Below, piece by piece: positions 442-30,870 of a stretch of DNA of 64,000 nucleotides (its first letter is position 1; every line of letters starts with the position of its first letter). The position numbers and the translations under genes were made by a program. The DNA comes from Obrimoposthia wandeli. Its lineage: Eukaryota. The stretch spans positions 372,001 to 436,000 of the forward strand of contig CDROCS010000774.1 of NCBI GenBank assembly GCA_977020255.1, written 5' to 3'. The notes beneath the pieces are model-generated. The model ran no database searches and was not told where the DNA came from. It worked only from the letters and a program-made list of their open reading frames with translations.

Positions 442-1175
442 TCTCTTACTTCCATACTCACGTGTTTTGATGACATCGCCATCGAATATATACGTTGGTC
501 CTTTTGTATCAGCATCTTTTGTATTTCCTTTACAACTCGTTTTCTTCGCTTGCATCCAGCGAATGTTGTTGATATTCGGTCAAGTGTGCGCTGTCGGTCA
601 GCTTCGTAATCTATTCGAAATTGATTCAGTATTCTGTTTTGTGGGTAAAATATCGCTTCATTTACTATGTTGTCCTCGATCCTTTCGTCTAGATACACAA
701 GCACTTTGTTCGTTGGTCCATTTGGTCTTTTCATCTTTACAAACTGAAATCTTTTACTGTCGGTTCTCATAGATCGAAGACATTTTCGGATGATCCACAC
801 ATCAATTAGTCCTAACAACACTAATAGCATCATCAGTGCCGGTGTATGGTACTGTGTGGTGTAGTTGTGGATTTCGTTGAACCAGGAACTATTTCCGTGG
901 TTGGAGCCTATCTCCTGTGCTCCCGTTATCGGCAGTAAACAACTTAACAAGCCTATCGCTAGCAATCTTTGGTATTGAAAGCTGGGCACTGTTGTTGTAG
1001 CTTCATTTGTTTCTCGTTGTTGCTTCCTCTTTTCGGTGTATTTTTCTATTTCTCGAACGAGTAACGGTTTGAATTCCGTATTTGGTCTATTCTGTTTTAT
1101 GTAGACCATCGCTTCTTCTGGCGTGTGACCATGGTACTCTACCAACAAGGATACACCTATGGTAGGCGCTAACAT
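438..1175 (-). CDS. Continuation ORF: C-part of pseudophosphatase plus two hydrophobic segments
   Basis: GTMLAPTIGVSLLVEYHGHTPEEAMVYIKQNRPN parallels GISRSATLVLAYLIKTRRMQVLEALKYLQERRS of DSP1. It joins the upstream ORF by a 1-nt shift in an A-run at ~1186. Hydrophobic segments LLAIGLLSCLLPITGA and ALMMLLVLLGLIDVWII. Confidence 0.75.
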   Translation of the reverse strand: MLAPTIGVSLLVEYHGHTPEEAMVYIKQNRPNTEFKPLLVREIEKYTEKRKQQRETNEATTTVPSFQYQRLLAIGLLSCLLPITGAQEIGSNHGNSSWFNEIHNYTTQYHTPALMMLLVLLGLIDVWIIRKCLRSMRTDSKRFQFVKMKRPNGPTNKVLVYLDERIEDNIVNEAIFYPQNRILNQFRIDYEADRQRTLDRISTTFAGCKRRKRVVKEIQKMLIQKDQRIYSMAMSSKHVSMEVRE

Positions 1176-3514
1176 CGTACCTTTTTCTGATATATCAGAA
1201 CGCCGTTTCCTTCTGTGACTTCAGCTTGGATGGTTTGAGTCAATTTCGTCAGATGTTGTTGTGCATCGTTTATTTCTCGATTGGAAGCGTGTATGTATCG
1301 AGTGGTGTCATCTTCAGTATTTTGACACAGACTGATTATTTCGTTTCCGACTTCAACAATGTTGATTACTCGGTTGATACTGTGGAACTTTAATCCAGCA
1401 GTATCTATATCTCCTGGATGACATAAAAATACCTTTGGCATTATCTGTGTAATTTTGTCGACTCCGGCTAAGAATAACCCGGTCAATGATAATGCTTGGA
1501 GGAAATTCTTTTCCTTTGGATCCTCAGGAATGTCGTCCATCCGTCTTTGTTCTTGCAACAGAAGTTGGTAATTTGCCAACTGTCCCAAAAAATTAAGATT
1601 TGGGTTTGCAATACTTCTTCTCTCCTGTAGGTATTTTAGCGCTTCTAGTACCTGCATTCGTCTAGTCTTTATTAGATATGCTAATACTAGAGTTGCTGAT
1701 CGAGAAATTCCTTTCTGGCAATGTACTAACACTTTTCCTTGGTTCCGGAGTTCTCTGTGAAGTATTTCGTTTGTTTCTACGAACCATTCGAGAAGATTAG
1801 CGTCCATTGAGTCTTTTACTCTTAATGTCATAGCTCTGATCGTCTGATATTGTGATTTGTGATTCATTGTAACGTTGATCACGTATGTTATCCCTTGTTC
1901 CAACAGTTTCTTTTCATCTGTTGCATCCTCCACATTTCCGAGGTATAACTTACCTGGAATGATCTCACTCATTGGTGGCATTAATTCTGACTCTTCAAGT
2001 TTTAGTCTTTCTAATCTCTTCTCTATTTGTTCGTCGATGTTGGATAGTTTCGCCAATTTCTTTCCTCTCAGCATTCGTATTGCTGGAGAGATATTCATCT
2101 TTGTCTCTGATGTCTGTTCCTTTGTTGAGTCTTCTTCCGATTCGGTCTCTTCTGCAGATTTAATTCGTCTTTCTTGTATATTCTGTTTCACGAATTCTAT
2201 GTTTTGTCTTTTTCTGCTCTCTTTAGCGAATTCAACCTCCATGGTTCTTCCGAATCGCTCTATTATGTTATCTTCGGATTCTGTTGATTCTGTATCGTTA
2301 CTTTCCGGTTCGCTGTCTTGACTAGACTCGCTCGAAGGGTATTCTGGTATGTCTGTCTGAACTGAAATTAATGAAGGGGTTAGAATAATTGGATTGATTT
2401 CCCCTTCGTATTTGTGAATCGGATACGGTATTACGCTATCTTTAAGTATTTCAACTTGGAATTGTGCTCCATAGCACATGACAATTGTTTCCAATTTACC
2501 CATGATGGACAATCCATCAAAATAGGTAACATTCAGCTTAGATATCGGTGTCTTCGCATAATTAATTAAGTTTACTCGTATCTCGGTTGATGATGGCCAT
2601 CGATTTTTTAGTAAAATTATAATTTCGTCGTTTATCGATGTAATTACACTTGGTGCGGATGATACTATTTCGGCATGATATTTTGGCTGGTTTGAAGTTG
2701 TTACTTGTTCTCGGATCATATTGATTCTTTGTGGTTTTTTATTTTTAGCTTCCCACTTCCGGTATCCGCTGTCAATGCGTAACTCTGCCGTTGCTTTGAT
2801 GATTTTATTGTTAGTCACTTCCGGATGGGTTGGCGAATGAAATCCTTCTATTACGCTCAACCTTACAGATACTTCCGTTTGATCTGTGTCTAACCGGTGA
2901 GATTCTGGTATACAACATACAATTGTCTTTCCATCAAAGTATTTGGTGTCCATCTGACAAATTATCTTTTCAGTGTCAGCGTCGATTAAATGGACTCTCA
3001 TGATATCTCTTTTCCCATGTGAATTACGTAATACCATTATTACATCGTGGTATTCTTGTTTGAGTCTTTTTGGTGTACCATGCAGTATGTGACCACCGGC
3101 CGGTTCTTTTTCTTCCTGACTGGCTAGTCCTGCTTCAGTACTGACATAGTTCTGCCATGCAACTATGTTTGGTGTCAATGTGATTTCGATTATCACTTTC
3201 TCAGTCGTAAACACATTGGAATTTTGATAAAGTGCTGCGACTAATGTATTTCCGTCGTAGTATGACACTCTAAGTTCGCACAGAAATTCGTTTGTCAGTG
3301 CATCTTTCACAATGACTTTTTTCGCCACATCTGTTGGTTGTGTTTTTTCGAAAACAACTATTATCTCTTCGTCTTCTTCTAATATCTCTTGTGGTGCGAT
3401 GTGTCGGATTACTTCCTTTTCCTCTTGGTACTTCATTCTGAGCATACCAATTCTCGCTGGTTTTTCCTCGCTACCACTCGTCATCATGTTTATGTAGTTC
3501 CGATCACTTACCAT
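1169..3514 (-). CDS. Post-integrase cargo ORF: 3 IPT/TIG-like repeats, dual-specificity phosphatase, N-part of a second phosphatase-like domain
   Basis: DSP motifs IIPGKLYLGN, GITYVINVT, general-acid D (VKDS), VLVHCQKGISRSATLVLAYL (1697-1723) and NPNLNFLGQL. Three repeats carry P..I....II and Y(Y/F)DG.T/S motifs. The frame is open upstream to ~3598. Confidence 0.85.
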   Translation of the reverse strand: MVSDRNYINMMTSGSEEKPARIGMLRMKYQEEKEVIRHIAPQEILEEDEEIIVVFEKTQPTDVAKKVIVKDALTNEFLCELRVSYYDGNTLVAALYQNSNVFTTEKVIIEITLTPNIVAWQNYVSTEAGLASQEEKEPAGGHILHGTPKRLKQEYHDVIMVLRNSHGKRDIMRVHLIDADTEKIICQMDTKYFDGKTIVCCIPESHRLDTDQTEVSVRLSVIEGFHSPTHPEVTNNKIIKATAELRIDSGYRKWEAKNKKPQRINMIREQVTTSNQPKYHAEIVSSAPSVITSINDEIIILLKNRWPSSTEIRVNLINYAKTPISKLNVTYFDGLSIMGKLETIVMCYGAQFQVEILKDSVIPYPIHKYEGEINPIILTPSLISVQTDIPEYPSSESSQDSEPESNDTESTESEDNIIERFGRTMEVEFAKESRKRQNIEFVKQNIQERRIKSAEETESEEDSTKEQTSETKMNISPAIRMLRGKKLAKLSNIDEQIEKRLERLKLEESELMPPMSEIIPGKLYLGNVEDATDEKKLLEQGITYVINVTMNHKSQYQTIRAMTLRVKDSMDANLLEWFVETNEILHRELRNQGKVLVHCQKGISRSATLVLAYLIKTRRMQVLEALKYLQERRSIANPNLNFLGQLANYQLLLQEQRRMDDIPEDPKEKNFLQALSLTGLFLAGVDKITQIMPKVFLCHPGDIDTAGLKFHSINRVINIVEVGNEIISLCQNTEDDTTRYIHASNREINDAQQHLTKLTQTIQAEVTEGNGVLIYQKKVRC

Positions 3515-3599
3515 TCGTGTAAGTTTAATGGTATTGGTATTCGATTTCGATTTCTGTGATCTTAACTCATATCGTGACGCATTATCTTTATTTGGTACT

Positions 3600-4670
3600 C
3601 AATTTGCATCGATTTGCATGTACAATCATCGGCTCCTTGTTCCGATTCTCCTCGTTGATTACTTTCAAATTTGTTGAGGTTGTCTGATCACCTTGTATGG
3701 TCCTTTGTATGGTCTGTGAAGTTTAAACGATAGACCTGGTTCGATGACTGGATAAAATATCATCACTTGATCTCCGACTCTAAATTCATGTGGTTTTGCT
3801 TTTTGTCGTATTGTTCCTTGTAACCTTCTTGATTGAATTTCAACTTCAATCCGGCTTTGGTCCAAGCATCTTGTAACCTTTCCTTCATGACGACAATGTA
3901 TTGTTCAGTTTCTAGGTACTGAGATGTTGGCTCGGTCCATTCCAGATCCATTGGCATATTGTTCTGTCTGAGATACATCAGATAGAATGGTGTGTGACCC
4001 GTCGCCTCTCGAACTGAATTCCTGTAAGCATATAAACATGAAGGTAATATTTATCCCAATCCTCTTGCTTGTCTGAGCAATAGATTGTACCATCATACAT
4101 AAAGTTTTATTAAACCTTTCCACCAGACCATCTGTCTGTGGGTGATATGGTGAAGTTTGTAACTTCATGATTCCGAATATCTTCGATACTGCTTTTATGA
4201 CTTCTCCAGTGAAGTTCTTACCTTGATCCGTTAACAATTTTCTAGGCACTCCGTATCGAAATATTATCTCTTCTACTAAGATTTGTGCTATTGTTTCAGC
4301 CTTCTGGTTCTGCATGGGATATGCTTCTACCCATCTCGTCATGTAATCCGTAAATACTATGACATACTTGTTTCCTTTACTTGATTCTCTCAATGGTCCC
4401 AATATATCCATCGCTGTGAATTCCATTGGTGCCAAGGGAACTGGCATTGGTTTCAACGGAACTTTAGTACGAGTTCCGGTGTCTTTTCTGGTTAAACATA
4501 CTTTACATTGTTTACACCATTGTTTTATGTCGTCTTCCATACCATCCCAATGGTACTTCTCTTTGATTCTGGCTATTGTCTTTCGCCCTGACAGATGTCC
4601 TCCTAGTGTTCCGTCGTGATACTGGATCATCACTGCTGTTTTCAATGACTTCGGAATTACTACTACTATC
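3600..4670 (-). other. Integrase (HHCC + DDE core + C-terminal GPY region; C-terminal part split by frameshifts)
   Basis: YHDGTLGGHLS..CKQCKVC; AMDILGPL, LTDQGKNF, YHPQTDGLVERFNKTL. Across frameshifts the sequence reads DWDKY-LPSCLYAYRNSVREATGHTPFYLMY, FRVGDQV, YKGPYKV and IVHANRCK. Confidence 0.93.
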
Positions 4671-7600
4671 TTTCCGACATTATTGACAATATACAAGATT
4701 CCTTCTTTTATCGAGTATTTTTTCGTCATTTCATCGTTTAGATCTCCTTTCACCAACAATTCTTTGATTAGACTCAGTTCTTCATCTTCTTTCTGTTCTT
4801 TGATGATCTCTTTGTCTATTTTACCCGTCTTTAGCAAAATCGTCAGTAGATTTGCTTCTCCTTTTTGGTCATTGGTTTCATCTTCTTCTGGAATTATGTT
4901 TCCTTTCTCGTCTACATTTGTCAATCTCGACAAACAATCTGCGTTGCCGTTCGACTTTCCGGTTCTATAACGGATTTCTAGATCGAATTCGGCCAATTTT
5001 AGAAACCATCTGTTTAATCTACTCATCTCATCTCTATGTTTATATAAGAACTGTAGTGGTTTGTGATCTGTATACAGGAATACTTTTTGTCCTAGCAAAT
5101 AGTGTCTGTACTGTCTACATGAATACACTATGGCTAGACATTCCTTTTCGATAACAGAGTATCCTCTTTCGGCTCTGTTTAATCCTCTACTCGCATACGC
5201 GATGACGTGTTCTCTTCCTTCGTCATCCTCTTGTCCCAATACTGCTCCTACAGCATAGTTACTTGCATCTGTCATGAGTATGAACTGTCGGTTTATATCT
5301 GGGAACGCTAATATTGGTGCTTTTATCAATCTTTCTTTTAAATGCTCGAACGCTTGTTGGGCTTCTTTTCCCCATATGAACTTCTCATCTTTTCTCGTCA
5401 ACTTTCTCAATGGTGTTGCTATATCTGAAAAATGTTCAACAAATCGTCTATAATAATTCGCAAGACCTAAAAAACTCTGTATCTCCTTAACAGTCTTTGG
5501 CGCTAAATGCGCTTTTACTTTCTCGATCTTTGCCGGATCAGGTCGAATGCCTTCTTTCGATACTATATGTCCTAAAAATGTTACTCGCTCTTTAGCCCAT
5601 TCGCATTTTGTAGGTTTAACTTTTAATTTAGCGTTTTCCAGTCTTTTAAATACAACTTCAAGATTTTTTAAATGTTCTTCGAACGTTTTCGAAAATATTA
5701 TTATGTCATCAATATAAACCATCGTGTTTGCACACGATGCGAGTACAAAATTCATGCAACGCTGAAATGTTGCTGGAGCTCCTGTCAGTCCGAATGGCAT
5801 CTTTTCGCATTCGTATAATCCATCTCCGCAGGAAAAGGCTGTTTTGTGTTTATCCTCTTCCTCTATCTCGATTTGCCAGTATCCACTCTGCAAATCCAAT
5901 GTCGTAAAATAATCTGAATTACCCAATTTATCGAGCATCTCTTCGATTCTAGGTAATGGATACACATCTTTTCTTGTGATCTTGTTCAGTTCTCTGAAAT
6001 CTATACAGAATCTCATTTTCCCATCCTTCTTTTTTACCAACACCACAGGTGCTGAGAATGGCGAAAAACTCGGTCTAATTACTCCTGTTTTAGACATATC
6101 TTCAATCTGACTTTTTACTTCATCTTGTAATTGTAATGGTACTCGATATGGTCTTCTTCTGACTACTTTGTCTTCTGTCAGTGGTATTGTATGTTTTATG
6201 ACAGGTGTTTCTCCTATGTCATATGGATTTTTTGCAATTACTTTCGGAAATTTATGTATTAGATCAAGTAATTGTTTCTTTTCTCTAGTTGTCAGTCTTT
6301 CTGATTGGATTACTATTTCTTCGTAATCGTTCGTATCTTTATCGAGTTTCATAGCACACACGGTGGGATTCTCCATCTGTGCTATCTTTCCCAACCTCAT
6401 TCCTCTGTATAATAGAATGTCATTGTTGGTTGTATTCATCAGTCTAACTGGTATTTTGTGGTTTTCGATCAGGCATACTGTACTCACAACTGGTAATTCG
6501 TATTTCTCTATGAAATCTCGTGATGGTTCGAACACAACTGGTCCTTTATCTTCTGATAATGTGTGACCTTGAATAAGAAATTGCGATCTTTTACCGATTT
6601 TTATAGGAATCTCTATAATTACATCAATTTGGTTTATTTGTCTGTTTGATGTGCTATCCTTCAATCTTGGATCTTGTAAATCAATACTTATCCCTTTAAG
6701 TTGTGATAGTACATCCATTCCTAAAATTGTAGGTTCAGGACATTCTTTCATGATTCTAACTGGTATAGTGATCGTATTACGTCCAATTATAAATGTACAT
6801 GGTAATATTCCCGTCACTTTTACAGGGTCTCCATTGACCGATACCAAGAATTCATCTGGTTCTGCCATTGTTCGTTTCTGTTCCTCTGTCAAACAGTCTT
6901 CACTTACTATCGAAGCTACAGCACCTGTATCAATTAAGGCTTTTACTCTTAAATTATTTACTCTAATGATAGCTGCTGGTCGCTGTGCTCCATTTATGTT
7001 TCCCATATGGTATATTGTATTTATCGAATTATTACACTCTGTCAGTCCACTTCCTATGTTTGGATAGTGAAATCTAATGTTTCTCACTTGTCGATCTATT
7101 ATTCTTCGACAAATCGGACATGATACCATTTCATTCGCACATCTCCGACATGTTCTGACATGTCCGCATGGTAGAAAGGCAACTTCTATTTTGTTGACCA
7201 TGCAAACTGCGCATTCCGGATCTTCTAGTACGTATTCTAATTCATTTATGTACTCTTTCTCTTTTGTTTCGATTGTACTGTCATCTTTATCTCGCAGTAA
7301 TTCAAAAATCGATCCGTATCCGTTTCGCGTAGTTTTTATTTTTAATTCTACCAATTCTCTAATTCTTTCTGCTTCTTTTGGATATAACCTTCTCACGAAT
7401 GACACTACCGGTGTGTCTTGTTGAGCCAAAATCTCTTTTCGTGTGATTTGGTATTCGATTATACATTCGGTTTTCTGTTCTTTTTGCTTTATTTTATTAC
7501 AAAATTCGCAAAATTCATGATGTAAAATTTTCTTAGGTAGCTCAAGAGTATATCTGTCGATAATTCGTTCTTTTTTACACTTGTGGCATTTAATTACGTC

Positions 7601-10600
7601 TTTACCATCCTTTTTTATAGCAAAAAGTCCCTTTTTTGCCAATTTTTTAAGTCTTGGGTCTTCGAAAGTTATTTCTCGATACTGTTCGTCACATTCGTTC
7701 ACTTCTCGCATAACTTCGAATATATCTTCAATTCGACTATTCGTTATTACTCTACCTGTTATTAGAGCTGATTCTCCTTTTGGAATCCCGTCACTGTAAT
7801 CGAAATCGGGTGCTTTTCCCGTTTGGATTTCTGGTACGTTTGACGTTTTCAGTTTCAAAAGAAATGGACAATTTGGTGCATCTTTTTTATGACGTCTCAT
7901 TGGGTTTTCATTCTTTTCCCATTCTCTGAACTTTACTCTACACCATACGCATCGTACTACTATCTCTTGACCATAACTGCTTGTCGCATTTAACATTTCT
8001 AACCCTGATCTTGCCATTTTACGTGCCATTCCTTTTGAATAGTACTGTTCTAATATATTTCGTCTCTTTCTCTCGAATCTCATGGGATCCCTTTCTGACA
8101 GATTTACATATGTTATTTTTCTCCTCGTCGTATCTTGTGGTCCGAAATTTACATTTTTGTAGTGAAGTATCGACTTTGCTAGCGCTTCCTGTTTTCTGTC
8201 TGGGTACGAACCTCCCATACGGAACGTAGTGCATTTTTCCTTTTCGACTATGGGTCCTCTCAACATTTTTATCTCTCTCACTGAACTGTCATTCTTATAA
8301 CTCTTGTTGTTTGGTAGTATAATTATTCCTTCAAACATTCGTATTACGTCCATCCCAATCATGACTGGACTACCGCAATCTGTGAATATTCTAGCATTTA
8401 ACTGCAATGCTCTTCCATCGATATTCAATGAACATTTTAGTGTTCCTTCCGACACTACATCTGTACCATTCACGTTAACAAATGTCTGTTTTCTAGGACA
8501 TACTTCTCTTAATTCTTTTGATGACAAGATTTCTTTACTCAGTACTGATACTGCAGATCCGGTATCAACTTCGGCAAGATATTCTCTTCCGTTCAATGTT
8601 ACTGCTACTTGTGGTGGAGCATTTGGATTCTCATTTGATATCCTAGATTTCAGAATTCTTCTGGAATTATCTTTTTTGTCTTTTTCCTCTGCTTGTGGAA
8701 TCTCACTGTAGCTCACTTTAGGCCATCTTATCATTAGGATGCCTCTCTTGAACTTTTCCTTTTCCTCCTTTAGTTCCTTCATTGGATATAGGTTTAACGC
8801 TACTTCTTCCTTGTCTGGTAATGGAATCTTCGGTTTTCCTGGTATCTTTGCATATACTTCTGGACTATCATTATCGTCGTCGTTGTCGTCTCGATAGTTT
8901 CTTGGTTCTCTCATCATGGTTCTCGTTTGGTGTTGTTCCTTCTTGAGGGCTCGCAACTCGTTCTCGTGATGATGGTGCATTAGATATTTTGCTAAAAATG
9001 GAAAACATCCAACTATAAGTTGCCAGGTGATTCCGGTTATCCTGTATAAACTATACGTAGACAACACCTGGGCTATAATTACCTGCACAAATTTAATTAT
9101 AACATAAATACCTATGATACCCGAAAATAATTGTCCTAAAACAAGGAATTTCCCCCACATCTTTCTAAGTGTCTGATGTGCTGCTTCCTTGAAATGACTT
9201 GGCGATAATAACATATCGAAATTCGCATATCTCGCTCCTGGCGGTAATGCTCGATGTACCATCTCCGTAAATACTCTGGCTCTTCTTACTGGAAACATTA
9301 TTTCGTTCCACGCCGCTTTTAAATCTCTTTCATTGTACAATCCTGCGTTCTCCATATTTTCCACCGCTTGGAATTTCATTTTACCTTTAAGATTCGTCAT
9401 TCTTATCATCGCTGGGGTTGTCGTTGGCTTTCGATCAGGTAACGTTATCCATAGATTATTCGTCATCTGATATTCAGGTGCCATTATATTAGAGCAGCTG
9501 ATTTCTTTAGTTGGAGTGTCTTTTGGAAGTAACATTCTCGTGATTGGCTCAACAAAAAGATCTTTTAAATTATACGTTACTGCCAATTCGCTCGTACATC
9601 GATCTGTTTTTCTCAACTGTACCTCTACTTTATTACACTTGTAAGTATACAATACTTCTCCCATGGTTTTAGCAAATACTCCTTCATCCAAGGGTAATAA
9701 TGGTGCTACCATGTCTGGATTCGTAATAGCTAATGCTAATTTTGTTCTTACGATCTCTTTGTTTAGCTGGCAATCTCTTTCGATCATCATCCGATATAAC
9801 TGTTCCATTTGCATCAATCCTTTATGATAATAGAAATCAATTTTATTATTAAAATACGTGTGTAGCTGCATATCTTTTGGTTTTAGCTTGGTTTCTGCCA
9901 ATGCTATTGCTTCTTTAGACAAAACTATTCCTGGATAGTTTGTAGTACTAACAGTCATTCCGCATCGCGCTTTGTTTCTCTTTTTAATAAATATCAATCC
10001 TTCTTCTATTGATGTTGCCATTAACAGTGTAGGTGTTTTTGTCATTGGGATTGGTCTTGTTTCATTGAGCAATCCTTTTCCAACTTTATTATACAGGAAT
10101 CCTTCTCCATCTTTATTATACAGGAATCCTTTTATTTTATTAAAGCTAATCTCTTTCAAAAATACTAAAGAGCATTGCTTCGGATTTATGTTATACACAA
10201 TTGTGGATTCGCCTGTAAAACAAGATGTATCTGTCATTTTACATTCTGGATACTTCATCATTAGTTGTGTCTTTTTATCAAAATTGGCGGTCCATGTTTT
10301 TAATTCGATTTTGTAAGTTACATCCATTACTAACTCAGATACTTTGGTTCCACGCACGTTTTTTGTTTCTCCGTCACAAGATCCATCAGCCCATCGTTGT
10401 CCGACTCTCGTGACTGTTTCGTATCGTCTCACTCCAATTTTTACTTCAGGTTTGTAATTCTTGTCTACCTCTATTGTTCCCGTTCGAAATGCATCTTCGC
10501 AATCTCTCGGCAAAACCTTATGTGCCTTGTACGGTGTGGTAGGTGTGATTTCTGACATAAAACTTCTATGGCCACAATAGAATTCGTGATAACTTGAATG

Positions 10601-13600
10601 GATTGAACATTCTTTCACTTCTACTTGTACTTTATCAACATCCTGATACACAAAGTAGTTTTCAACACCTTGAACTTCTAGTTTTGACGGTTGTGATTCT
10701 GGACAGTCTTCGCTGTCAAGCAGTGAATACTTTTGTCCCATCTTTGGTATGCTACAGTCATATGCTATCAATCCTGATGCCTGTTGCATTCCCATAAACA
10801 TTACTAACATCATCATCATCATTGTGGTGGACATATTTGGTTGATTGTTTCTCTCTTTCGGACGGTATTGTTTATTTTCCTTTTGACGATTCTCATGACA
10901 TTGTTCGTCATCGTCTTCATTCATTTCCAAAATGGTTTTAGCGTAGTCACTTAATTTTGCCCAACCTCCGTTTTCGTCAATTCGTCTCTGTAATACATTC
11001 TCTATCAAATACATCGCTTCATTTATTCCTTGTTTGACTTCGTGAGGTTGGCTCGTTCGTTCCGTCAATTGGAAACATAGATATGTGATCGCTGTAATTA
11101 ACTTTTTATTTGTAGTCTGGTTTCCACATAGTCTCGCTAAAACTTCACCGTCATAAAATCTATCTATCGATGCATGGTATACATGATTCGCGGTCATTCT
11201 CTTTACTGCAGACATCTGTGATCTGACTGCTTTAGTCAAATTGTCTGTTATATCGGTTGTTTCATCTCTGTACATTTTAAACAACTTCGGCTTCACTTGC
11301 CTGAGAATTCCCGTAAGTATATCTTTACTACTTGGAGTTTCCGAATTCATATCACCTCTGATATCTTCATTCCTCTCTGCACTATACTGCTCTAATGACG
11401 CTGCTAACTGTCCAATACTTAGATGTCTCTCTTCATCAGTTTGTGGTGCTGTTAGAACATTTCGTAATATACTTTCGCCTTTTCTAGGTCTTCCAGGTCC
11501 TCTTCGAAAATACTGATACTCAGTTTGATCCTCTCCTGGATCATACGTTTCACCATTATACTGTATCTCTTGACTTGGTCCTTCTTCATGGCCAATCTCT
11601 TCACTTTGTCGCATCATTTGCTCTGCTTGTCTATCTTTGTATGCGGCATGCCAAATTGGTGAATCCAAATCTACAATCTCGGAGACTTCGTCTTCTCCTA
11701 CTAGTTGGGTTACGGTTTCGTTTTGTCTCACTTGGTTAGCTGTATCCGTGACTTCATCTTGTCTGATTGGAATTATATCTGGTTCTGGTGGCACCTCGAC
11801 CACTGGAGTTGTCAACTCATTTTCTAAATTCATGTCTTGTAATTCAGCTACGTACGGTTCTGGTGTGGATGTCTTGTTCCAAGCTTCAGCTACATCATTA
11901 TCTCCGCTTTCGCTTGAACTGTCTAAAATTTCTATAGGCGTTTTTATCATTTCTAACGCAGAATTCAATATCTCGGATAATCCTTCATTATCTACTAACT
12001 CTTGACGTCCTACAGTGATGACATCAATTTTTTCCTCTAATTCATTTCCTATCGGATATCCACACTCGACTGGTACGTCCTCATCATCTAGTGATCTCCC
12101 TTTATAATGGAACAACATATTCATTCCATCAATTTCAAGTTTCTCGGCCAACTTTTTCCGAATCGTTTTCATTGTTTGATACACGTTAAGTTTTTCATGT
12201 ATTATCTGTCCGGAAATTAATCGAAGTGAAATTTTCATCGTTCCTTTTTGGTTTGATCTCTGTACATAACGACCATAACCTTTCAGTAGTCCTCGGGGTA
12301 CTTCTTTGTAACCCAAGTTATCATGACTATGTTTAACCAATTCTGCACGCACTTCTTCCAATCGGTGCACTTTAATTGTTTGCAATTTGGCCAAAACTTC
12401 TGGAGCTTCACTCGTTTCATCTAACGGTTGATTCAACGTCTCCTTAGCTTCACTAATTATCTTTTTTACATCTTCCATACTCGTAGCATTTCTCGCTGCT
12501 TCCACATGATCAGTCATAGGTTGTGCGTTACACGTTTTCTCTATTGGTGTCTCATACGCTTCTAGTATTCTATTCATTAAATCATTCATCTCTTCTCTCG
12601 AGTGTAGACTTTTCTCTTGTTTCGACAACGTAGATGAATTCGCCATCTTTGTATGTGGTGAATCTTTAATTATTCCCAACATTCGTTCAAATTTACTATC
12701 ACTATCTTCAAAATCTATTTCGCGTCGAAGCTCGGTCTCGCGATTCCTATCACTGTCATCGCTTACATAACTAAAATTTCCTTTCGGTTTCGGCGAACTC
12801 TCTCGACTATTTGTCTTGTCGACATTATTATTATTATATCTACCAGAATTATTATATCTCTCAGCTCCTTGCTGTCCTACGTAATTATTGTATCTCTCAG
12901 CTCCTTGCTGTCTGTCTGCATAGTTATTGTATCTACCTGGTGACTGTTGTCTATCTGTATACTGATTATTCAGTCTCCATGGCTGTGGAGTATATCCACC
13001 ACCTCTATTCCATGGCGGAGGTGAATTATATCCTCTATAATTATTTCCAAAATTATTATTACCGAAATTATTATTTCCAAATCTGTTAGCTCCGAACTCT
13101 TTACTTCTCGTACAATCTCTCGAATAGTGACCCATTTGTTTACACGTGTAACACATTATTCTCCCTCGAATATCTATCTTATTTTGTTCATCTTCGAACT
13201 GTACTCGACGACTATTCTGTCTATTATCATAGCGTCCTCTAAAATCATTTCTTCGGAAATTCGATTCAAAACCGCTTCCTCGATTATTGAATCTTCCGTC
13301 ACTATTTCCTGCATTATTTCCAAATCGAGAGTCACTTCGCTCTCCTCTGTTGGCGTTATAATTCCTATCGTCTCCTCTCCAAGGTTGGCGATTTCCGGAA
13401 TTATCTCTATTAAATCTATTCCTGGAATCATCTCTATTTCTATTCCACGAATCATTATTATTTCTACCTCTTGAATCATCTCGATTCCTGTTCCAAGACT
13501 CACTATTATTTCTACCTCTTGAATCATCTCGATTCCTACTTCGGAAATTATCTCTATTTCCGTTACTGGATTCATCTACTTTTTCAAACTTATTTTGTCC

Positions 13601-14434
13601 ATAATTTCGATTCTGAAAATTACTCGGTTCTGTTTTATTCACGAAGACCTTTGTCTTATCGTCGTCACCTGCAGTCATTGCGTAGATTGCCAATGCTGCA
13701 TTATTTTTTATATTTTTCTCAATCTCTCTCGCCTTTCGTACGGCGTTATCAAAATCATTTGTATCCGATACTGCTAATAACACTTTAATATCCTTTTTCA
13801 ATCCTCCTCTAAATATATCTAACAAGACCTCTGCCATTTCATTTTGGTTCCGGTCATTTTCCGCTGCTTGTGCTTCTGGAGCTACAGGATTACCGTCCTG
13901 ATTTCTCATTATTCTTCTTGGGTACGCTCTTGCGGCCAAGGTTCTCAAAACATACGCGTATTCATTCACGCCTTCATCATGTTTCTGTTTCCGTTCTCTC
14001 ATGAGTCGCTTATTTACTTTGGCTAAGTCTCCTAATACCAATTTTCCAATAAAAGCATTTTCCAACGTTGGCCAGTCTAAACGTTCTGCTTCTGTCAAAT
14101 GTTTATACACTTCAAGTGCTAATCCGGTTAAATGTGCCTGTACTCTGACACATTTTTCTCTATCGTTCCATCCTTGAACATCTGCACAACTCGAATATTC
14201 TGCGAGGAAGTCACAAATACTTTCCTCATCTCCTTTAAACTTTGTAATCTGCAATGATCCTGAAAAATTGGGTCTCAACGTCGCATTTAAAGCTTGTGCC
14301 AACTGCTCGGCATTCATTTCACCTACATTATTTCCTGCATTAATATCTGGTGGAGCTCCTTGGTGAGCCATATCGTCAATTATATCGTCTTCAATTATTC
14401 CTTCAATATTATTTACTTGAACTTCTTCAATCAC
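3905..14434 (-). CDS. Gag-cargo-Env-Pol polyprotein (3509 aa in ORF track; first ATG at 14371; true C-terminus continues past frameshifts at ~4069/4046)
   Basis: Uninterrupted 10.5 kb ORF with recognisable Gag, Ubl, Bcl-2-like, glycoprotein, two proteases, BIR/RING, RT, RNase H and integrase motifs. Confidence 0.95.
   Translation of the reverse strand: [3509 protein letters not shown]
4920..5290 (-). other. RNase H (Ty3/Gypsy type)
   Basis: [50 protein letters not shown]. Confidence 0.95.
5560..6245 (-). other. Reverse transcriptase (Ty3/Gypsy type)
   Basis: [69 protein letters not shown] (YIDD at 5705-5716), FLGHIVS. Confidence 0.97.
6700..6985 (-). other. Retropepsin aspartic protease 2 (canonical Pol position)
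   Basis: [15 protein letters not shown] (DTG at 6923-6931) and ILGMDVL motif. Confidence 0.9.
7100..8075 (-). other. Inhibitor-of-apoptosis module: BIR1, degenerate BIR2, C3HC4 RING
   Basis: BIR1 (7860-8075): MARSGL..VRCVWC....[21 protein letters not shown]. BIR2 (7500-7690): LAKKGLF....DVIKCHKC...HHEFCEF. RING (7100-7215): [36 protein letters not shown], typical of IAP RINGs. Confidence 0.9.
8330..8615 (-). other. Retropepsin aspartic protease 1
   Basis: [22 protein letters not shown] (DTG at 8558-8566) and C-terminal VMIGMDVI motif. Confidence 0.85.
8980..10834 (-). other. Chuvirus-type envelope glycoprotein (signal peptide, Cys-rich ectodomain, C-terminal TM)
   Basis: Signal [21 protein letters not shown] followed by [15 protein letters not shown], C......[21 protein letters not shown], CQL.....[21 protein letters not shown]..R....C..EL.[9 protein letters not shown] and TM [22 protein letters not shown]. 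This motif series is the one I recognise from Jingchuvirales glycoproteins and their retroelement captures. Confidence 0.85.
10935..11325 (-). other. Bcl-2-like domain (BH3-, BH1- and BH2-like segments)
   Basis: [24 protein letters not shown] is in register with Bcl-2 [35 protein letters not shown] resembles [25 protein letters not shown] resembles LHTWIQDNGGWDAF (BH2), with BH1-BH2 spacing within about 2 residues of Bcl-2. Confidence 0.65.
11477..11506 (-). other. AT-hook motif
   Basis: [10 protein letters not shown] matches the (K/R)-G-R-P-R-K AT-hook core. Confidence 0.65.
12010..12238 (-). other. Ubiquitin-like domain within the polyprotein
   Basis: [52 protein letters not shown] aligns gap-free by eye to ubiquitin residues 1-52 (M.I......G..I........T......K...K..I..........G..L.D). 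There is no C-terminal di-Gly. Confidence 0.75.
13110..14371 (-). other. Gag region with retrotransposon-gag core and CCHC zinc knuckle
   Basis: [32 protein letters not shown] and [19 protein letters not shown] (gag core / major-homology-like region). [14 protein letters not shown] = CX2CX4HX4C at ~13113-13157. Confidence 0.9.
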
Positions 14435-14807
14435 TTCTGGATTGGCAACTTCAATCCCCTCTGGGTTTTGAACTTCAATATTATCAATTTCTTCTGGGTT
14501 TATGTCACCAATTAACTCAGTCAGATCAAAACTATCGGTTGAAACTGCTGATTGATTTACGTCTCTTTCTGATACGTTTTCTTCGACTCTAGTCTTTTCT
14601 GTTACTTTGTTATCTGTTTGGGGAACCTGTTCAATTCGGTTAACTTTATTATTATTTGTCTCTTCCTTGGGAATCTGGCTTTGTCTTCTAGTATTAAACG
14701 CGGGTCCTTTTCTATTATCCGTTGTCTTATCAATTATGTATTCGTTTACGATATCAATTTACTTATTATTTTTATCTTATTTCACAATTCTTATTTTACG
14801 ATTTTTT

Positions 14808-15010
14808 ATCTCTTTAATTAGTTCGAGGACAGAGTCTCCCGACTTAACCTATTCAATTAATTACTTCGAGTATCAATCCACTCGATTCTCACTTTATCAA
14901 ATTTATTTACGATTTTATCTTTTTAATTAGTTCGAGGACAGAGTCTCCCGACTTAACTTATTCAATTAATTACTTCGAGTATCAATCCACTCGATTCTCA
15001 CTTATAAAAT
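14808..15010. repeat. Two tandem copies of a ~109 bp unit in the element leader
   Basis: gttcgaggacagagtctcccgacttaac at 14821 and again at 14930. Confidence 0.9.
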
Positions 15011-15016
15011 TTACTG

Positions 15017-15360
15017 ACTCGAGGAACAAATCCACTCGACTTCTCAAAACTTATCAAATTCTTAACTTCGAGGAACAAATCTACCCGATTTCTCAAAAAC
15101 TTATCAAATTCTTAACTTCGAGGAACAAATCTACCCGATTTCTCAAAAACTTATCAAATTCTTAACTTCGAGGAACAAATCTACCCGATTTCTCAAAAAC
15201 TTATCAAATTCTTAACTTCGAGGAACAAATCTACCCGATTTCTCAAAAACTTATCAAATTCTTAACTTCGAGGAACAAATCTACTCGATTTCTCAACACT
15301 TATCAAATTCTTAACTTCGAGGAACAAATCTACTCGATTTCTCAAAAACTTATCAAATTC
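15017..15360. repeat. 50-bp tandem array (6 full copies plus 1 degenerate) in the leader
   Basis: cttaacttcgaggaacaaatctacccgatttctcaaaaacttatcaaatt recurs at 15061, 15111, 15161, 15211, 15261, 15311. Confidence 0.95.
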
Positions 15361-15645
15361 TTCTGAAACTTATTCTCAATTGTCTATATTCTTCTGCTGA
15401 AACTTATTCTCAATTTATCTGAACTTATTCTCAATTTATCTGAAACTTATTCTCAATATCTGAAACTTATTCTTAATATCTGAAACTTATTCTTAATATC
15501 TGTAACTTATTCTTAATATCTGTAACTTATTCTTAATATCTGTACTTATTCTATTTACCTGAAACTTATTCTCAATTATCTGAAACTTATCCGAACTTAT
15601 TCTATTTACCTGAAACTTATTCTCAATTATCTGGAACTTATCTAC
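15361..15645. repeat. Degenerate ~20-bp tandem array (ctgaaacttattctcaat...) in the leader
   Basis: More than ten diverged copies of tctga(a/t)acttattct(c/t)aat are visible. Confidence 0.85.
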
Positions 15646-15670
15646 GTGAATTCGCTGTGTCCGACGAGCT

Positions 15671-15689
15671 ATCCTCACTCGGGGCACCA
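15671..15689 (-). promoter_or_regulatory. Primer-binding site complementary to the 3' end of elongator tRNA-Met
   Basis: Plus strand ATCCTCACTCGGGGCACCA vs metazoan elongator tRNA-Met 3' end AUCCUCACACGGGGCACCA (18/19, recalled sequence). It lies 8 nt inside the LTR end. Confidence 0.8.
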
Positions 15690-16178
15690 CTTTAATATGT
15701 TGGGGTTTCTATACGAAACTTTGTATAGATCCTCTTAATGTGCGGAGGGCCCCAACGTGAGTTCGATTAGAAGCAGGTCTTAAAGTTGGTCGTGGCCTAC
15801 TTAGTGTTATGGTTGCCTAATCTCTTGTACTATCTGAAGGTATTTGATTAGATGCCTCTTAGTCTGAAGGGTGCAAAACAACTTGTTCTAATGTAGGAAA
15901 TTGTTTATTTGAAATTCACGTAACTAACACAACAATACGTTTATGTACGTATTTCTAAAAAGTATGATAAAATTCCTAAAGGACTTCTGTAAGTCTCTAC
16001 AAGAAGTGGGGATGAACCACGTATCGATTTTACGTTCAGGTGATTAAGCTTTTAGGTTTATTCTTCTTACTTAGGTTGGTTAATCTATAACGCAACTCTC
16101 TTAAATTTCTTTGCTCCTACTTCTTATCTCTAGATAAAGTTTCTTGGTTCTTTAACTCTATCTGCTGTGTGTTTGACC

Positions 16179-16585
16179 CCGAATTGTCCACTGTGAACAA
16201 TGGGTCTCCTAAAAACCTAATTGTCGAGATGACAATGAAAAACTTACTCCTAATTGTCAACTATGGACAATGAACGAGCCGAATTGTCAGCTAGGGACAA
16301 TGAGTCTTACCGAATTGTCAACTAGGGACAATGAGTATTTATCCGAATTGTCAACTAGGGACAATGAATCTTACGGGCAAAAAGTCTGGGTATGATTCCT
16401 AATTGTCGCTGGGGACAATGAATAAATGGCTGATCTTAATTACCAACTAGGGGCAATGATTTAGTTAAAGAGTCGGAAATCCTAATTGCCAGCTAGGGGC
16501 AATGAATATGTTTAAAATATGTTAAACAACCTAATTGCCAACAAGGGGCAATGAATTTATCCTAATTGCCAACTAGGGGCAATGA
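16179..16585. repeat. 11 interspersed ~25-bp palindromic units within the LTR
   Basis: CC(G/T)AATTG(T/C)C-N5-7-G(A/G)CAATGA cores separated by variable spacers. Confidence 0.9.
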
Positions 16586-16653
16586 ATGGTTTAGTTGGTG
16601 TTCTTACCTATATGTTACTCGAGATTCCGGTACAGGATCCGTATGTAGCTTGG

Positions 16654-17240
16654 GAGAATGGCTTATTTTCTCCTGATCGCAAATATAGATTGAGAATGGC
16701 TTATTTTCTCCTGATCGCAAATATAGATTGAGAATGGCTTATTTTCTCCTGATCGCAAATATAGATTGAGAATGGCTTATTTTCTCCTGATCGCAAATAC
16801 AAATTGAGAATGGCTTATTTTCTCCTGATCGCAAATACAAATTGAGAATGGCTTATTTTCTCCTGATCGCAAATATAGATTGAGAATGGCTTATTTTCTC
16901 CTGGTCGCAAATACAAATTGAGAATGGCTTATTTTCTCCTGGTCGCAAATATAGATTGAGAATGGCTTATTTTCTCCTGATCGCAAATACAAATTGAGAA
17001 TGGCTTATTTTCTCCTGATCGCAAATACAAATTGAGAATGGCTTATTTTCTCCTGATCGCAAATATAGATTGAGAATGGCTTATTTTCTCCTGATCGCAA
17101 ATACAAATTGAGAATGGCTTATTTTCTCCTGATCGCAAATACAAATTGAGAATGGCTTATTTTCTCCTGATCGCAAATATAGATTGAGAATGGCTTATTT
17201 TCTCCTGATCGCAAATATAGATTGAGAATGGCTTATTTTC
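16654..17240. repeat. 38-bp tandem array, 15 full copies plus a partial copy, within the LTR
   Basis: gagaatggcttattttctcctgatcgcaaatatagatt from 16654 to 17224, i.e. (17224-16654)/38 = 15. Variant copies carry tacaaatt or ctggtc. Confidence 0.97.
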
Positions 17241-20200
17241 TTTGGTTGATATTGAAAATCTAAATTATCGATTAAGTTGGCTGCATTCACCAATCTCTAC
17301 TTACCAATTCTCCGATTCCTGGGATATTGTGCTGTTCTGTTTAGTTTCTCCGTTTTCTTTGTAGGAGATATCAGTGACTTATATAGTTGCCTATTTGCTG
17401 TCAATCAGCACTCTTGACTTCTCTTCTCGGTCCGGGCTTGGCGGCAGCTGAAACTGCTAATGCTAGAAATCCACGTGAGTCCGGGCAGCTGCTAAATTGA
17501 ATTAATTAAATTGCACGTAAATGTGCTTACTTTTGACGTTTGTAGATTTCCTTTCTGCTGACGTTAGCAGATTATTTTTCCCTTTTTTGCTTTTTGCACT
17601 TTTGGGTTAATTAATTTAACTTTTATACATTTCACATTATACACGACCTTCGTGGTCCTCCTAATTTTTACCCTAAATTCCACTAATTTCAATTCTAAAA
17701 CTAAAATTAATATTTTAATTTAATTTTCAACCTTGCTTTCAAGGATTTTTATTTTAGTATTTAATCGACTAAAATATTTAAATTTCTTAATTCTCAAACC
17801 TAACACTAACAACAGTCATATCAAAAAGATTTATCTAAAAATAATTTGCCTTACTACTGAAATAACTACAATGCTAACGCATGTTATTAAAACTTGATTT
17901 AAAAAATTATTTTATATTTAATATTTTAGCTTAAAAAATTTAAACAAAGCAGACAAAATTATATTCAAAATATTTAATGAAGCTACATTGGCTACTTATG
18001 ATCAAAATATTCTCTCACAAAAACCAAGATATTTATATGATATTCTGGAGCCTGGTGATGTGACGATATATATGCATCTTAGGAACAACGTTGACGACTG
18101 TAGTTAAGGAATATTTGAAATTTATCTTCTTAATCTTTTTAAAAATCAACCGATGAATGTAAAAAACTGTTACAATGTTGATAAATTCAAGAAGCAATTA
18201 TTTAGAAAATATTACGAAGTATAATGTAAAACTAGAAGCACTTTTAAGTATTAATTCATAGATTTATTACATATTAGTGCTATATTAAATATATTATTGT
18301 TAATATACCGTTACTATGTACATAAATCTAATTATTCAAATCTATTAAAAACCATTTCTAAACGTTTTGAAAAGGAATGCAGTTTCTGATACGAAATGAT
18401 AACTGATTATATAATCAACCGATACACATTTTAGCATACGAATCTGAATTTATTTGGCTTTTACTTAAAGTAAACTACGTCTTTCATTCCTAAGAATACT
18501 TCTTCAAGTACTTACTCGTGATAAATGAAATATGATCCTGTTCTAAATACTCGTATCAAGTACTGTTTTCAAACTGTTTTTCGATTAATAGATTATAGCT
18601 CAAAATTTAGCCACTAATAATTAAACAATAAATTAATTCCGATGTAGACAGTACAAGTAAATCATTGAAATATTTAATGGTATAACCTTTATAACTATCA
18701 ATTAATTATTTTCGAGTAGGCCATAATATCCTACTAAATATTACAACATATATTCTTTCTATCATGTTCATTTTTGTGATGCAATTAAGCTAAAATTTGC
18801 AGCAATCTTATTTTGAAGATAATATGGGTGTGCAATTATGAAGGCAGAAGTTGTGTCAGGAAATAAAAGAATAACTTAATTGATTACATCATTGATAAAT
18901 ATCAATTTGCGAAGGTGTAAGTAATATCAAATTGTATTAATCGAATTAATATTGTCCAAATTGTTCTAGATAATTTGAAAAATTATAATTTGATAATTCT
19001 AACAGATCGCTAGATAATTTGAAAGCTTATTTTTTTAAATTGGCCTAAATAAGCTGTGGTCAATATAAAAATTTGCGTAAATAGTTCCAGGTAAAAAGTC
19101 ACAAAATTCGATTTCTGACGAGTAAATCTTGAGTAAAGTTTTGGTCCCACTAATTGACTTAACATACCCCTGCGTCATGAACTTTGGTTCAAACCTTTAC
19201 AGCAAGGGTTAAAGTGCAAGATACTTGACCTTTGACCCTTGCTGATAAGGGTTTGACTCTCAACTCATAGCTCATGACTTATGGGGTCCCGTTGAGCTAT
19301 TGAGCGAGAACAGACACTTTACACTACTTCCGACCATTACTGAATTCGATCATTTTTAATTGATATGATGTATGTTTGCTCAAATTTATTCAAATGAAGT
19401 TGTCATCAAACATATTCTCGTGTTTGAGGGTTCAAAATGTTGTAGTTGTCTAAGAAATTTACTTTCTTCCACTATGCATCAAAAAAATTACAAATATTAA
19501 AAGAAGTAAAAGTTATGTGTATTAGTTTCGTCTAAACATAACCGTAAAAATATTTTTTGCAACGGTTCTGCTCTATTATTTCACCAAGCAACTAACTACA
19601 AAATATCATTATTTTCAAATTCATACACTACATTTTAATTCACACCAACTGAAATCACAAAATTACAATCAAAACCATTTTCACAATAAGCATTACACAC
19701 GCGTGGAAATTAACAAAGCACTTAAAAGTGCTCAAATTTGCCTTATCAGAAATTAATTATGAACATAATGCTATCAGCAAAACAAATATTTGTCATGTAA
19801 ATAAATACACAGAATAACTAAACACAGAGCAACACCATACTTCAGTATTTCTTGATAGTTTTTAAACTATCATTATGTAACAACGTTTTGTAAGCTTGCT
19901 GATAAAAAATAAAACGTCGAATTAAAATTTTATGGCAAAGAAATGACAAACGTTAAATAGTCAAAAGTTTCAAATAACTTAAAAATCAAATACGTTATTG
20001 TCTACAAAATAAAGAGAATTGAAATTCGAAGTAAAAGTAGAATTCTCAAATTCCCATTAAACAAGCTAGTGATAATTCTGATAAATTTCATTCTGATAAA
20101 TATTTTAATATTTTAGTTCGTCATTTTATTATTCTGATTGCTTACTTCTGTTCGAGTTTTTGATTTATTGTTGTAGCTGTTTTGATAGAGAAGAGAAAAT

Positions 20201-26189: not shown

Positions 26190-26790
26190 AGTCAACAGGC
26201 TGCCAATAATTCGAAAATCCATATATATGGTGCTTTCTTTGGTGTACTCGAAGGCCGTGACCCTTGGGGGCCACAACGTCTCATGCCGCACCATGATCTA
26301 CGTGAGCAGTCAAATGCACCGCCTGTTCCTATCATATGAATCACAGCCATCACTTGGAATCTTGCCAGAAGACTTTCCAACTATAAAAATCACAAACAAA
26401 ATTACATCTGTGCTAAAAGGTATATTGCTAACGCTGTAATCAGAGCGATGAACAACGGATGTTGCACAGGAGCTACTTGTGGCAATGACAGCGGTTGCCC
26501 TCAGCATCAGGCTCCACCAGAACACCCTTCGTTACTCCCATTTTTATGTCGGCCCGAAAATAATGAGAAGACGCGCAACTGAGACCGATACTCGTCATCC
26601 ACTTTCAACATCTGCTCACACCGGCCATTACCAACAATGGATGGCCCTCCCGTCGAAATACATTTAAATGAATATGCCACCTTTCGTATCTGTCACACTG
26701 CGGCATCGATTCCAGTGCACTGGCAAGAAAAGGTACATCAAGACTTACTCCGTGACGAAGACTTCAACCTGGTGCCATAGGATGGTAACG
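26190..26790 (+). mobile_element. Fragment of a second Gypsy family (protease to RT N-terminus), related to the 57.8-61.5 kb element
   Basis: IYGAFFGVLEG, RTMIYVSSQMHRLFLSYE, LGILPEDFPT, ASIPVHWQEKVHQDL. The GxFFGxLEG motif recurs at ~59185-59205. Confidence 0.7.
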
Positions 26791-29349: not shown

Positions 29350-29499
29350 ATTTTTTAATATAAATAAATATTTTATTCATCTTATTCAATTTTCCTTGAT
29401 CTAAAATTTCAATGATTCCAATGGATGGTAAGCTTTCCATACCACGAGACGTAACAATGCCCGATCCGAGAAATTACATCAGCCGACACTAGCGGAGGC

Positions 29500-30870
29500 C
29501 TATAAACGAAGTTTGCCGGAGGGTACGTTTGCAGTGCCAGATGATGATGGGGACAGCATCGATCTTAATGCAAGGGCCGTGGCAATCGCTTCCAAAGGAT
29601 ATGCCCCTTTTGTGAACATTGCTGCTTTACGTCAACCAAAAAGAAGAATCATTGATGCAGTAGAAGAAACACACATCAATGCATGTGTAGAAGCTCTTTT
29701 TTTCAAGAAAATCATCAAAGTTTCACGTAAAGGATCCTTTTGTTCACAGGTACGAATGGTGCTGAAATCAGATTCAAACCTTCGCTGGCTCATAGTGGAC
29801 TTCGTACATCTTACTCCATGTCTTCCACAGTTGCATATGAGAACACCGAACCTGGCAGAGAATCTCAAAATTATACCACCCAGTATGCAAGCACTCCGTA
29901 TTGATTTAACATACGTTTTTTACCAAGTGCCTATCGCCACAAAAGCACATCATCTCACAAATTTCTGAGTGCTTCTTCGCGAACTAATGGATTCTCGTTC
30001 TTCCTACTTAATTAGTTTTCAACTTCCTTTCCGAAATCCACTCATCCTCCGAAATCCACAAAGCTCAGCAATTTTACAGTGGACCTTGACCCTTATTTTA
30101 ATAGATGGCAGCAAATTTGGGATATACCTTTGGTGCATGTGTACATTGACGATATCTTGATAGTTGATACCAAGAACACTCCGATGTGGTCCAAAGTTAC
30201 AAAATTCTTCAAGCTTTGGATCTTGCAATTAAATTTTTATAAATCTCAACTTATCCTGGCACAAACTGTCACCTATTGCGGAATGGCTTTCGAACTGATG
30301 ACGCAACAAGTGAGAAACATGCGAAAAGATCATACTTGACCAAGATTTTTCAGAAGAAATTTGTTTTTAGAATTATGTGACAAATTTTTTGAAGTGGCTC
30401 TATGTAATTAACTATTTAGCATCAAATCTCCGAGCTCAATGCTTCCGTATTTTAGAGAAATACGCCCAAATCTGGACTTGGAAGCTAGGAATACGGAATG
30501 TTTGGGCTACCAATGCTATTTTGATGACAATAGCCGTGATTCAGACAAAACCACAGAGGAAAGTTCATCTGGCTTTGCGAATCCCATAGGAAGATATATA
30601 TATACAAGAAGCCAAATAATTGATGTGGTCCATCTGTTTGTCATCACTGGGAGACACTATACACTGCTACAATAAAAGACTTGTATGGACCACAGCCTTG
30701 AAACGTTTCCTAACACAAACAAAGGACTGGTGGATACTCATCGCGATTCAACTGTTGATTACGTTTCAAAGGATTGAAGTACAATTCATCCCAACTTACC
30801 AGAATTCAGCTGATCAGCCCTCTCCAAAACAACTGCTTCTTCAAGATCTGCAAGGAGATTGGACCTCTTG
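29500..30870 (+). pseudogene. Degenerate RT-RNase H (DIRS-like or Gypsy-like, unresolved)
   Basis: KKIIKV..GSFCSQVRMVLKSDSNLRWLIVDF..L, RIDLTYVFYQVPI, VHVYIDDILIV, QFIPTYQNSADQPS. Confidence 0.65.

Follow-up and report, generated by a model that had tools for sequence, protein, structure and literature searches.

A conserved, predicted Bcl-2-fold domain lies ahead of a likely internal Env signal sequence in a Burro-like giant retrotransposon of Obrimoposthia wandeli

Here we describe a conserved domain that is predicted to adopt the Bcl-2 fold, is carried inside a retrotransposon polyprotein and is followed by a likely internal signal sequence of the envelope protein (Env) of the same element. 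In the reading that we consider probable, this signal tethers the Gag-to-Bcl-2 piece to the endoplasmic reticulum (ER), at least briefly. The element was found in a 64,000-nucleotide stretch of the Obrimoposthia wandeli genome (assembly GCA_977020255.1, contig CDROCS010000774.1, positions 372,001 to 436,000), which is referred to here as the window and to which all coordinates belong unless stated otherwise. A BCL2-like domain and its place before Env are already known from Burro elements according to PMC6431247, and the initial annotation of this DNA, which called the domain cryptic, has to be corrected in this respect, since a BCL2-like motif straight before an in-frame Env had been published.

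The Bcl-2-like stretch is located in a minus-strand frame of 3,617 codons from stop to stop, running from 14758 to 3905 (open reading frame translation). A Pfam scan placed along this frame, in order, Gag, ubiquitin-like, Bcl-2-like, Env, protease, BIR/RING, protease, reverse transcriptase (RT), RNase H and integrase domains, the matches for the Bcl-2-like and ubiquitin-like domains being weak. An LTR element with one giant frame that holds Gag, a ubiquitin-like domain, a BCL2-like domain, an in-frame Env, protease, BIR, RT, RNase H and integrase corresponds to the published description of Burro, and, judged by this domain layout, the element is a Burro-like giant gypsy LTR retrotransposon. 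Its features are as follows.

15697..17805, minus strand: upstream LTR, mapped part
3905..14758, minus strand: polyprotein frame, interrupted within the integrase region in this copy and resumed in 1169-3598 and 438-1220
13109..13153, minus strand: Gag CCHC zinc knuckle (PF00098, E=7.4e-5)
12059..12226, minus strand: putative ubiquitin-like domain, weak (PF00240, E=0.062; equally weak match in relative P0005)
11483..11497, minus strand: GRP motif, which we take to be AT-hook-like, upstream of the Bcl-2 fold and retained in some Bcl-2-less relatives
10922..11338, minus strand: predicted Bcl-2-fold domain, aa ~1141-1279 (predicted model, fold comparison, profile match, dN/dS)
10835..10921, minus strand: charged linker from the Bcl-2 fold to the signal, of family-dependent length
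10772..10834, minus strand: internal Env signal sequence, cleavage predicted after Gly1329
8879..10771, minus strand: Env, Monjiviricetes-type fusion glycoprotein (PF24664, E=1.1e-93)
about 9062-9130, minus strand: Env stop-transfer helix (hydropathy)
8345-8608 and 6701-6967, minus strand: two aspartic proteases (Pfam), one on each side of the BIR-RING region
7091..8029, minus strand: BIR and RING, IAP-like region (Pfam)
4139..6037, minus strand: RT, RNase H and integrase (Pfam)
1565..1948, minus strand: dual-specificity phosphatase domain (PF00782, E=3.2e-34), in the next frame after integrase

The mapped part of the upstream LTR is 96-99.9% identical to a repeat located 3.6-5.7 kb past the left edge of the window (blastn of locus L078 against the window), which puts the length of the element at about 23.5 kb between LTRs. 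Pfam gave no match in the window for MATH, ankyrin or dUTPase-like domains, which in print were partly found by HHpred and vary between species (PMC6431247). The host genome is rich in copies; of 12,422 candidates, the 150 scored all match a 211-aa query at about 100%. The 12 loci retrieved with a distant query, aimed at other Burro families in the same genome, were all of the same family.

Several further observations were made in and around the element. The BIR-RING region is flanked by the aspartic proteases at 6701-6967 and 8345-8608, which suggests its excision as one unit, and more than one protease stretch is also present in relatives P0006, P0007, P0008, P0010 and P0055. Another natural copy carries a second, weaker dual-specificity phosphatase domain towards the left edge, and three short tandem RING-finger frames (L078:6645-8258, minus strand) lie just past the left edge of the window, between the polyprotein and the downstream LTR. 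The leader and LTR (14800-17355) contain tandem-repeat arrays of 20, 38, 50 and 109 nt. Elsewhere in the window, a truncated 5' piece (Gag region) of a related element, 76% identical, occupies 26787-27775 and continues to about 28056, another LTR element has left decayed frames resembling RT and integrase, recognized by eye, at 58201-60894 (plus strand), and 29432-29968 also looks RT-like. Relative P0018 (Env-protease-RT-integrase) has been assigned in the database to a Flavobacteriaceae metagenome bin, as a hypothetical protein, and is probably contamination.

Taken as a single sequence, the Bcl-2-like domain is marginal. It matches Pfam PF00452 at E=0.043 and 14.8 bits, short of the gathering score of 31.4 bits, a search of PDB sequences with it returned no Bcl-2 match, and the ESM Atlas, of low recognition value, gave no useful match and no Bcl-2 lead. 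With homologues, the likeness rises well above chance. A word-based search for longer homologues yielded nothing, as none of its 547 candidates passed. Fifty relatives, several of which span the domain, were obtained from a search of 1.84 billion representatives, and 8 of the 19 proteins scanned matched PF00452 weakly (E 7.7e-5 to 0.055, at E<=0.1), with the best homologue at 23.6 bits, again below 31.4. A profile made from 11 aligned element-borne domains, without any canonical Bcl-2 among them, matched 127 PDB sequences at E<=1 (best E 1.8e-5), and the 60 listed were all Bcl-xL, Bcl-2 or A1. Alignment of this profile to a host Bcl-2 alignment with hhalign gave 94.8% and E=5e-8 over BH1-BH2.

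The initial annotation had proposed structure prediction and fold comparison as the check on its claim, and the outcome was in its favor. AlphaFold2, run with neither templates nor canonical Bcl-2 rows, gave a model with a pLDDT of 88 and a pTM of 0.85 that forms a Bcl-2-type helical bundle, extending from helix 1 to helix 8 around a central helix 5. When the model was compared with 48,161 chains, the first 37 of the 50 listed rows were Bcl-2-fold proteins, a count that includes rows for poxviral A46, A49, A52 and B14, which we take to have this fold; the best Z score was 13.3, and the first unrelated row had 5.1. The top rows aligned 130-144 residues at an rmsd of 2.6-3.6, the best match being KsBcl-2 (Z 13.3, rmsd 2.8, 133 aligned), and a comparison with Bcl-2 gave Z 13.8 and an rmsd of 2.9 over 138 aligned residues. 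With Foldseek, the listed PDB rows all belonged to the Bcl-2 family, and the viral library was led by viral Bcl-2 proteins. Z scores up to about 13 may be generic for helical bundles, as the fold-comparison tool warns; this worry is answered by the gap to the unrelated rows together with the sequence evidence. The good model does not take in a helix that lies upstream of aa 1137, which casts some doubt on the true N-terminus of the domain. A single-sequence AlphaFold2 prediction of a 211-aa piece reached a pLDDT of 40 and was discarded. Taken together, the proposal that a domain with a Bcl-2 fold is conserved inside this retrotransposon polyprotein holds, with homology judged by sequence and the fold predicted.

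The domain also appears to be maintained. Compared with a diverged subfamily copy (L047), in a simple counting analysis of one pair of copies, its dN/dS was 0.07 over 135 codons (dS 1.10), and the same comparison gave higher values for Env (0.19), BIR (0.35) and the spacer (0.62). By this measure, the Bcl-2 domain is under purifying selection. A search for a host donor among 10 host frames gave the best scores for L036, L035 and L043, too weak to name a donor. The host also has a Bcl2-2 frame (L031:1207-1836, plus strand) that is 81% identical to Schmidtea mediterranea Bcl2-2, in keeping with a planarian host, and intronless across the BH region. This host frame ends 16 aa past the BH2 Trp, as does its S. 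mediterranea match, and shows no clear tail anchor; hence, some Bcl-2 proteins of planarians may lack an obvious tail.

The model and the profile alignments allowed the BH regions to be assigned as follows.

11294..11329, minus strand: helix 1, BH4 position, with LRQ (model H8-19; Bcl-xL alignment)
11192..11254, minus strand: BH3-position helix without Gly-Asp (model H33-53; in L046 and P0005, its start coincides with PF00452 positions 6-7)
11081..11131, minus strand: BH1 region, with TNKK for NWGR (profile alignments)
10958..10993, minus strand: BH2 region, IDENGGW (Gly in 11/11, last Trp in 10/11)

The LRQ motif lies at aa 1152 (11305) and IDENGGW at aa 1260 (10981), both on the minus strand. 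The initial annotation read LRQ and the YR and Leu that follow it as BH3, and this part needs revision. Residues 7..138 of the model align to residues 4..196 of Bcl-xL; since model residue 7 thus corresponds to Bcl-xL residue 4, LRQ closes helix 1 (BH4), and YR is found in only one of the five alignment rows with letters there, with YK in one more. Where the initial annotation placed BH1 and BH2, and noted that NWGR is lacking, the profile alignments agree with it. The Gly-Asp pair is a mark of the BH3 motif in pro-apoptotic donors and is absent from the BH3-position helix in 7/7 rows. In BH1, none of the 10 rows with letters has the Trp or the Gly, and all 10 have Lys or Arg at the Arg position; in BH2, the first Trp, present in 8 of the 11 rows, is missing in the window. 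As two residues of NWGR, the Gly and the Arg, are important for the binding of BH3 (PMC9027176), a BH1 region that has lost Trp and Gly points to a binding groove that is likely altered. Viral members of the family may be without BH motifs (PMC7022251). Judged from these alignments, the loss of NWGR is compatible with the Bcl-2 fold family and excludes canonical cellular membership.

The segment behind the Bcl-2 domain has the makings of a signal sequence. It opens with MSTTMMMM at aa 1309 (10834), and the mature Env would start with LIAY at 10771. In the window, the BH2 Trp precedes the first Met of the signal by 43 aa, in line with the spacing of about 40 aa given previously, and the hydrophobic core by 47 aa. 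A net charge of +2 ahead of the core, a basic n-region, the core itself and small residues at -3 and -1 are all present, and the Pfam Env model begins here. Of 51 proteins, 39 allowed the cleavage site to be located, and the remaining 12 were fragments or escaped the pattern; the site was taken as two residues before a conserved A(Y/F)DC, with a filter that demanded a hydrophobic stretch and nothing of the cleavage residues. A small residue was found at -1 in 35 and at -3 in 37 of the 39 proteins, and at both in 34, versus 11, 13, 6, 2 and 11 proteins that obey the (-3,-1) rule in five shifted registers. These counts lend good support to the signal peptidase cleavage between ASG and LIAY that had been proposed, as a prediction. 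The Met run of the signal (10816-10834) is an ATG-triplet microsatellite with five triplets in 61 of 70 matches, some of which are overlapping loci, and a range of 1-28, the 28 occurring in copy L067.

In the reading that we favor, the signal would enter Sec61 with its N-terminal side in the cytosol, signal peptidase would cleave after ASG, Env would pass into the lumen as far as its stop-transfer helix, and the protease-IAP-Pol part would remain cytosolic, with the element's own proteases then freeing the domains. Cleavage combined with this topology would leave an upstream Gag-Ubl-Bcl-2 piece that ends in a membrane segment, in the orientation of a tail anchor. The signal would nevertheless belong to Env, with translocation as its chief task, and the short, weakly hydrophobic remnant would more likely be trimmed or shed than retained as a Bcl-2-type tail anchor. 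The Bcl-2 domain itself is likely to be pro-survival or immune dampening, beside BIR-RING, and may act via the changed groove or a non-groove surface.

The initial annotation had gone further, with one segment doing two jobs, and this claim finds no support in the comparison of relatives. Under such a dual use, the signal would stay as a lasting C-terminal anchor after cleavage and make the product an ER-resident, tail-anchored Bcl-2 survival factor. This is topologically possible, given a cytosolic N-terminal and a luminal C-terminal side, and in 11 of 11 Bcl-2-bearing relatives no other folded unit follows the Bcl-2 fold before the signal, which is the arrangement that an anchoring role would produce. 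Both linker and signal are conserved relative to the subfamily copy (87% and 81% identity, respectively, on few synonymous sites). However, the same signal is borne by 10 relatives that have at least 120 aa upstream and no domain-profile match there, of which one (P0012) looks chimeric and three retain the upstream GRP motif, and the Bcl-2 domain is absent from many relatives. Nor is the signal more anchor-like where the domain is present. The insertion scores rest on a hydrophobicity scale with no position terms. The median of the best 19-residue score was 5.4 in 9 Bcl-2-bearing and 3.1 in 8 Bcl-2-less relatives (lower is better; nominal p 0.02), in a comparison that omits P0012, P0034 and the near-duplicates P0008 and P0048 and whose rows are not independent; Kyte-Doolittle values were 1.64 and 1.90 (p 0.2), and the signal segment of the window scored 5.4 versus 1.8 for its own Env helix. 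The uncharged run in the signal is only 5-16 aa long, and the distance from the BH2 Trp to the hydrophobic core varies from 25 to 60 aa across 11 relatives. Moreover, a product that enters by way of Sec61 would be committed to the ER and not to mitochondria, where Bak and Bax act. Mitochondria are also the site of the family's central action (PMC7022251). Bcl-2 tails are poorly conserved, and most Bcl-2 proteins need their tail (PMC7022251), which speaks for an anchor. Lasting anchor/signal segments are known in Flaviviridae, where they are retained on envelope proteins and removed from core or capsid (PMC8310223), so that this precedent cuts both ways. An Env tree of 15 rows (midpoint root; five short Bcl-2-bearing rows under 130 aa dropped and P0048 left out) showed no clustering of Bcl-2 labels, with 4 changes versus 4.3-4.4 when shuffled and 2 of 12 branches well supported; P0004, which has the domain, joins three Bcl-2-less rows at 91/96, and the order of gain and loss is not given by the tree. 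In the literature covered, of which Lee et al. 2026 and Grohme et al. 2018 were not part, there is no mention of the signal as a Bcl-2 anchor, which carries little weight for that reason. On balance, we regard a lasting anchor as conceivable but unlikely. We hold equally doubtful the broader scenario in which a tail-less Bcl-2 was captured and put ahead of the Env signal, signal peptidase yields an ER-resident, tail-anchored Bcl-2, and the Gag precursor is held at the membrane into which Env inserts, with a single segment acting as signal for Env, as membrane tether for Gag and as anchor for Bcl-2.

Two other explanations do without a tether or without a true domain. Env could have an RNA of its own, either spliced or internally initiated, starting at the Met of MSTT, in which case the signal would be an ordinary N-terminal one and Bcl-2 would never be tethered. 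The in-frame Met that opens the signal in the window, followed by the Met run, fits such a start, and other gypsy-type env genes lie in their own frame (PMC6431247). However, a Met no more than 25 aa before the core is found in just 5 of 9 Bcl-2-bearing and 4 of 8 Bcl-2-less relatives (9/17), a single open frame in the window covers Gag, Env and Pol, four long relatives (P0008, P0018, P0027 and P0030) have Env and Pol in one frame, and the sequence ahead of the ATG is A rich with no pyrimidine tract, so we consider separate production of Env improbable. Less credible still is that the Bcl-2 likeness, picked out by eye in the initial annotation, arose by chance or marks a decayed passenger domain. 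The single-sequence scores under the cutoff, the generic range of the Z score and the many relatives without the domain would suit this view, but the profile, profile-profile and fold evidence is concordant, and the dN/dS of the domain is as low as 0.07. A conserved domain ahead of an Env signal that tethers it at least briefly hence remains the explanation that we prefer.

This work raises a motif-level note on BCL2 to a call backed by structure and selection, and, by defining where the domain begins and ends, how BH1 is altered and where Env likely starts, it makes a second survival function testable in elements of the Burro type, which fill planarian genomes. The results imply, for the polyprotein of a retroelement, a membrane topology like that of flaviviruses and, should the anchor be lasting, a new route by which a captured gene may gain membrane targeting.

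The predicted fold is shared with viral Bcl-2 proteins (KsBcl-2, BHRF1, A179L, GIV66 and poxviral M11L, F1L, ORFV125 and N1), at 4-14% identity and with eroded BH motifs on both sides; in addition to the KsBcl-2 match, fold comparison gave Z scores of 7.5-12.5 for BHRF1, A179L, GIV66, M11L, F1L, ORFV125 and N1. ORFV125 has SPGR in BH1 (PMC9027176), and the TNKK of the element is further from NWGR. Unlike these proteins, which are encoded by free genes of large DNA viruses, the domain described here is part of a retroelement polyprotein and has no tail of its own. With Flaviviridae, the element would share an arrangement in which a cytosolic protein ends in a hydrophobic segment that also serves the following glycoprotein as its signal and is cleaved by signal peptidase (PMC8310223). 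In pesti-, hepaci- and flaviviruses, signal peptide peptidase or the viral protease takes away the signal behind core or capsid (PMC8310223); the cytosolic protein there is the capsid, which loses its anchor, whereas here it would be a Gag-Ubl-Bcl-2 piece.

The closest counterpart is Burro (GYPSM1), giant gypsy LTR retrotransposons that occur in dugesiid planarians (PMC6431247, with reference to Jurka 2007 and Grohme 2018) and whose giant frame holds Gag, ubiquitin/SUMO-like, BCL2-like and BIR domains, with an Env that matches mononegavirus glycoproteins between BCL2 and the protease (PMC6431247). The element differs in having one CCHC knuckle, versus two to three reported, and in having two proteases and a dual-specificity phosphatase, which the Burro section of PMC6431247 does not mention. 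It shares with Burro the very long single frame, the domain order, the in-frame Env before the protease, the high copy number and the planarian host. Burro expression is under piRNA control (PMC8532177), and the BIR-RING region of Burro1 is reported, second-hand from Lee et al. 2026, to protect stem cells (PMC13465017).
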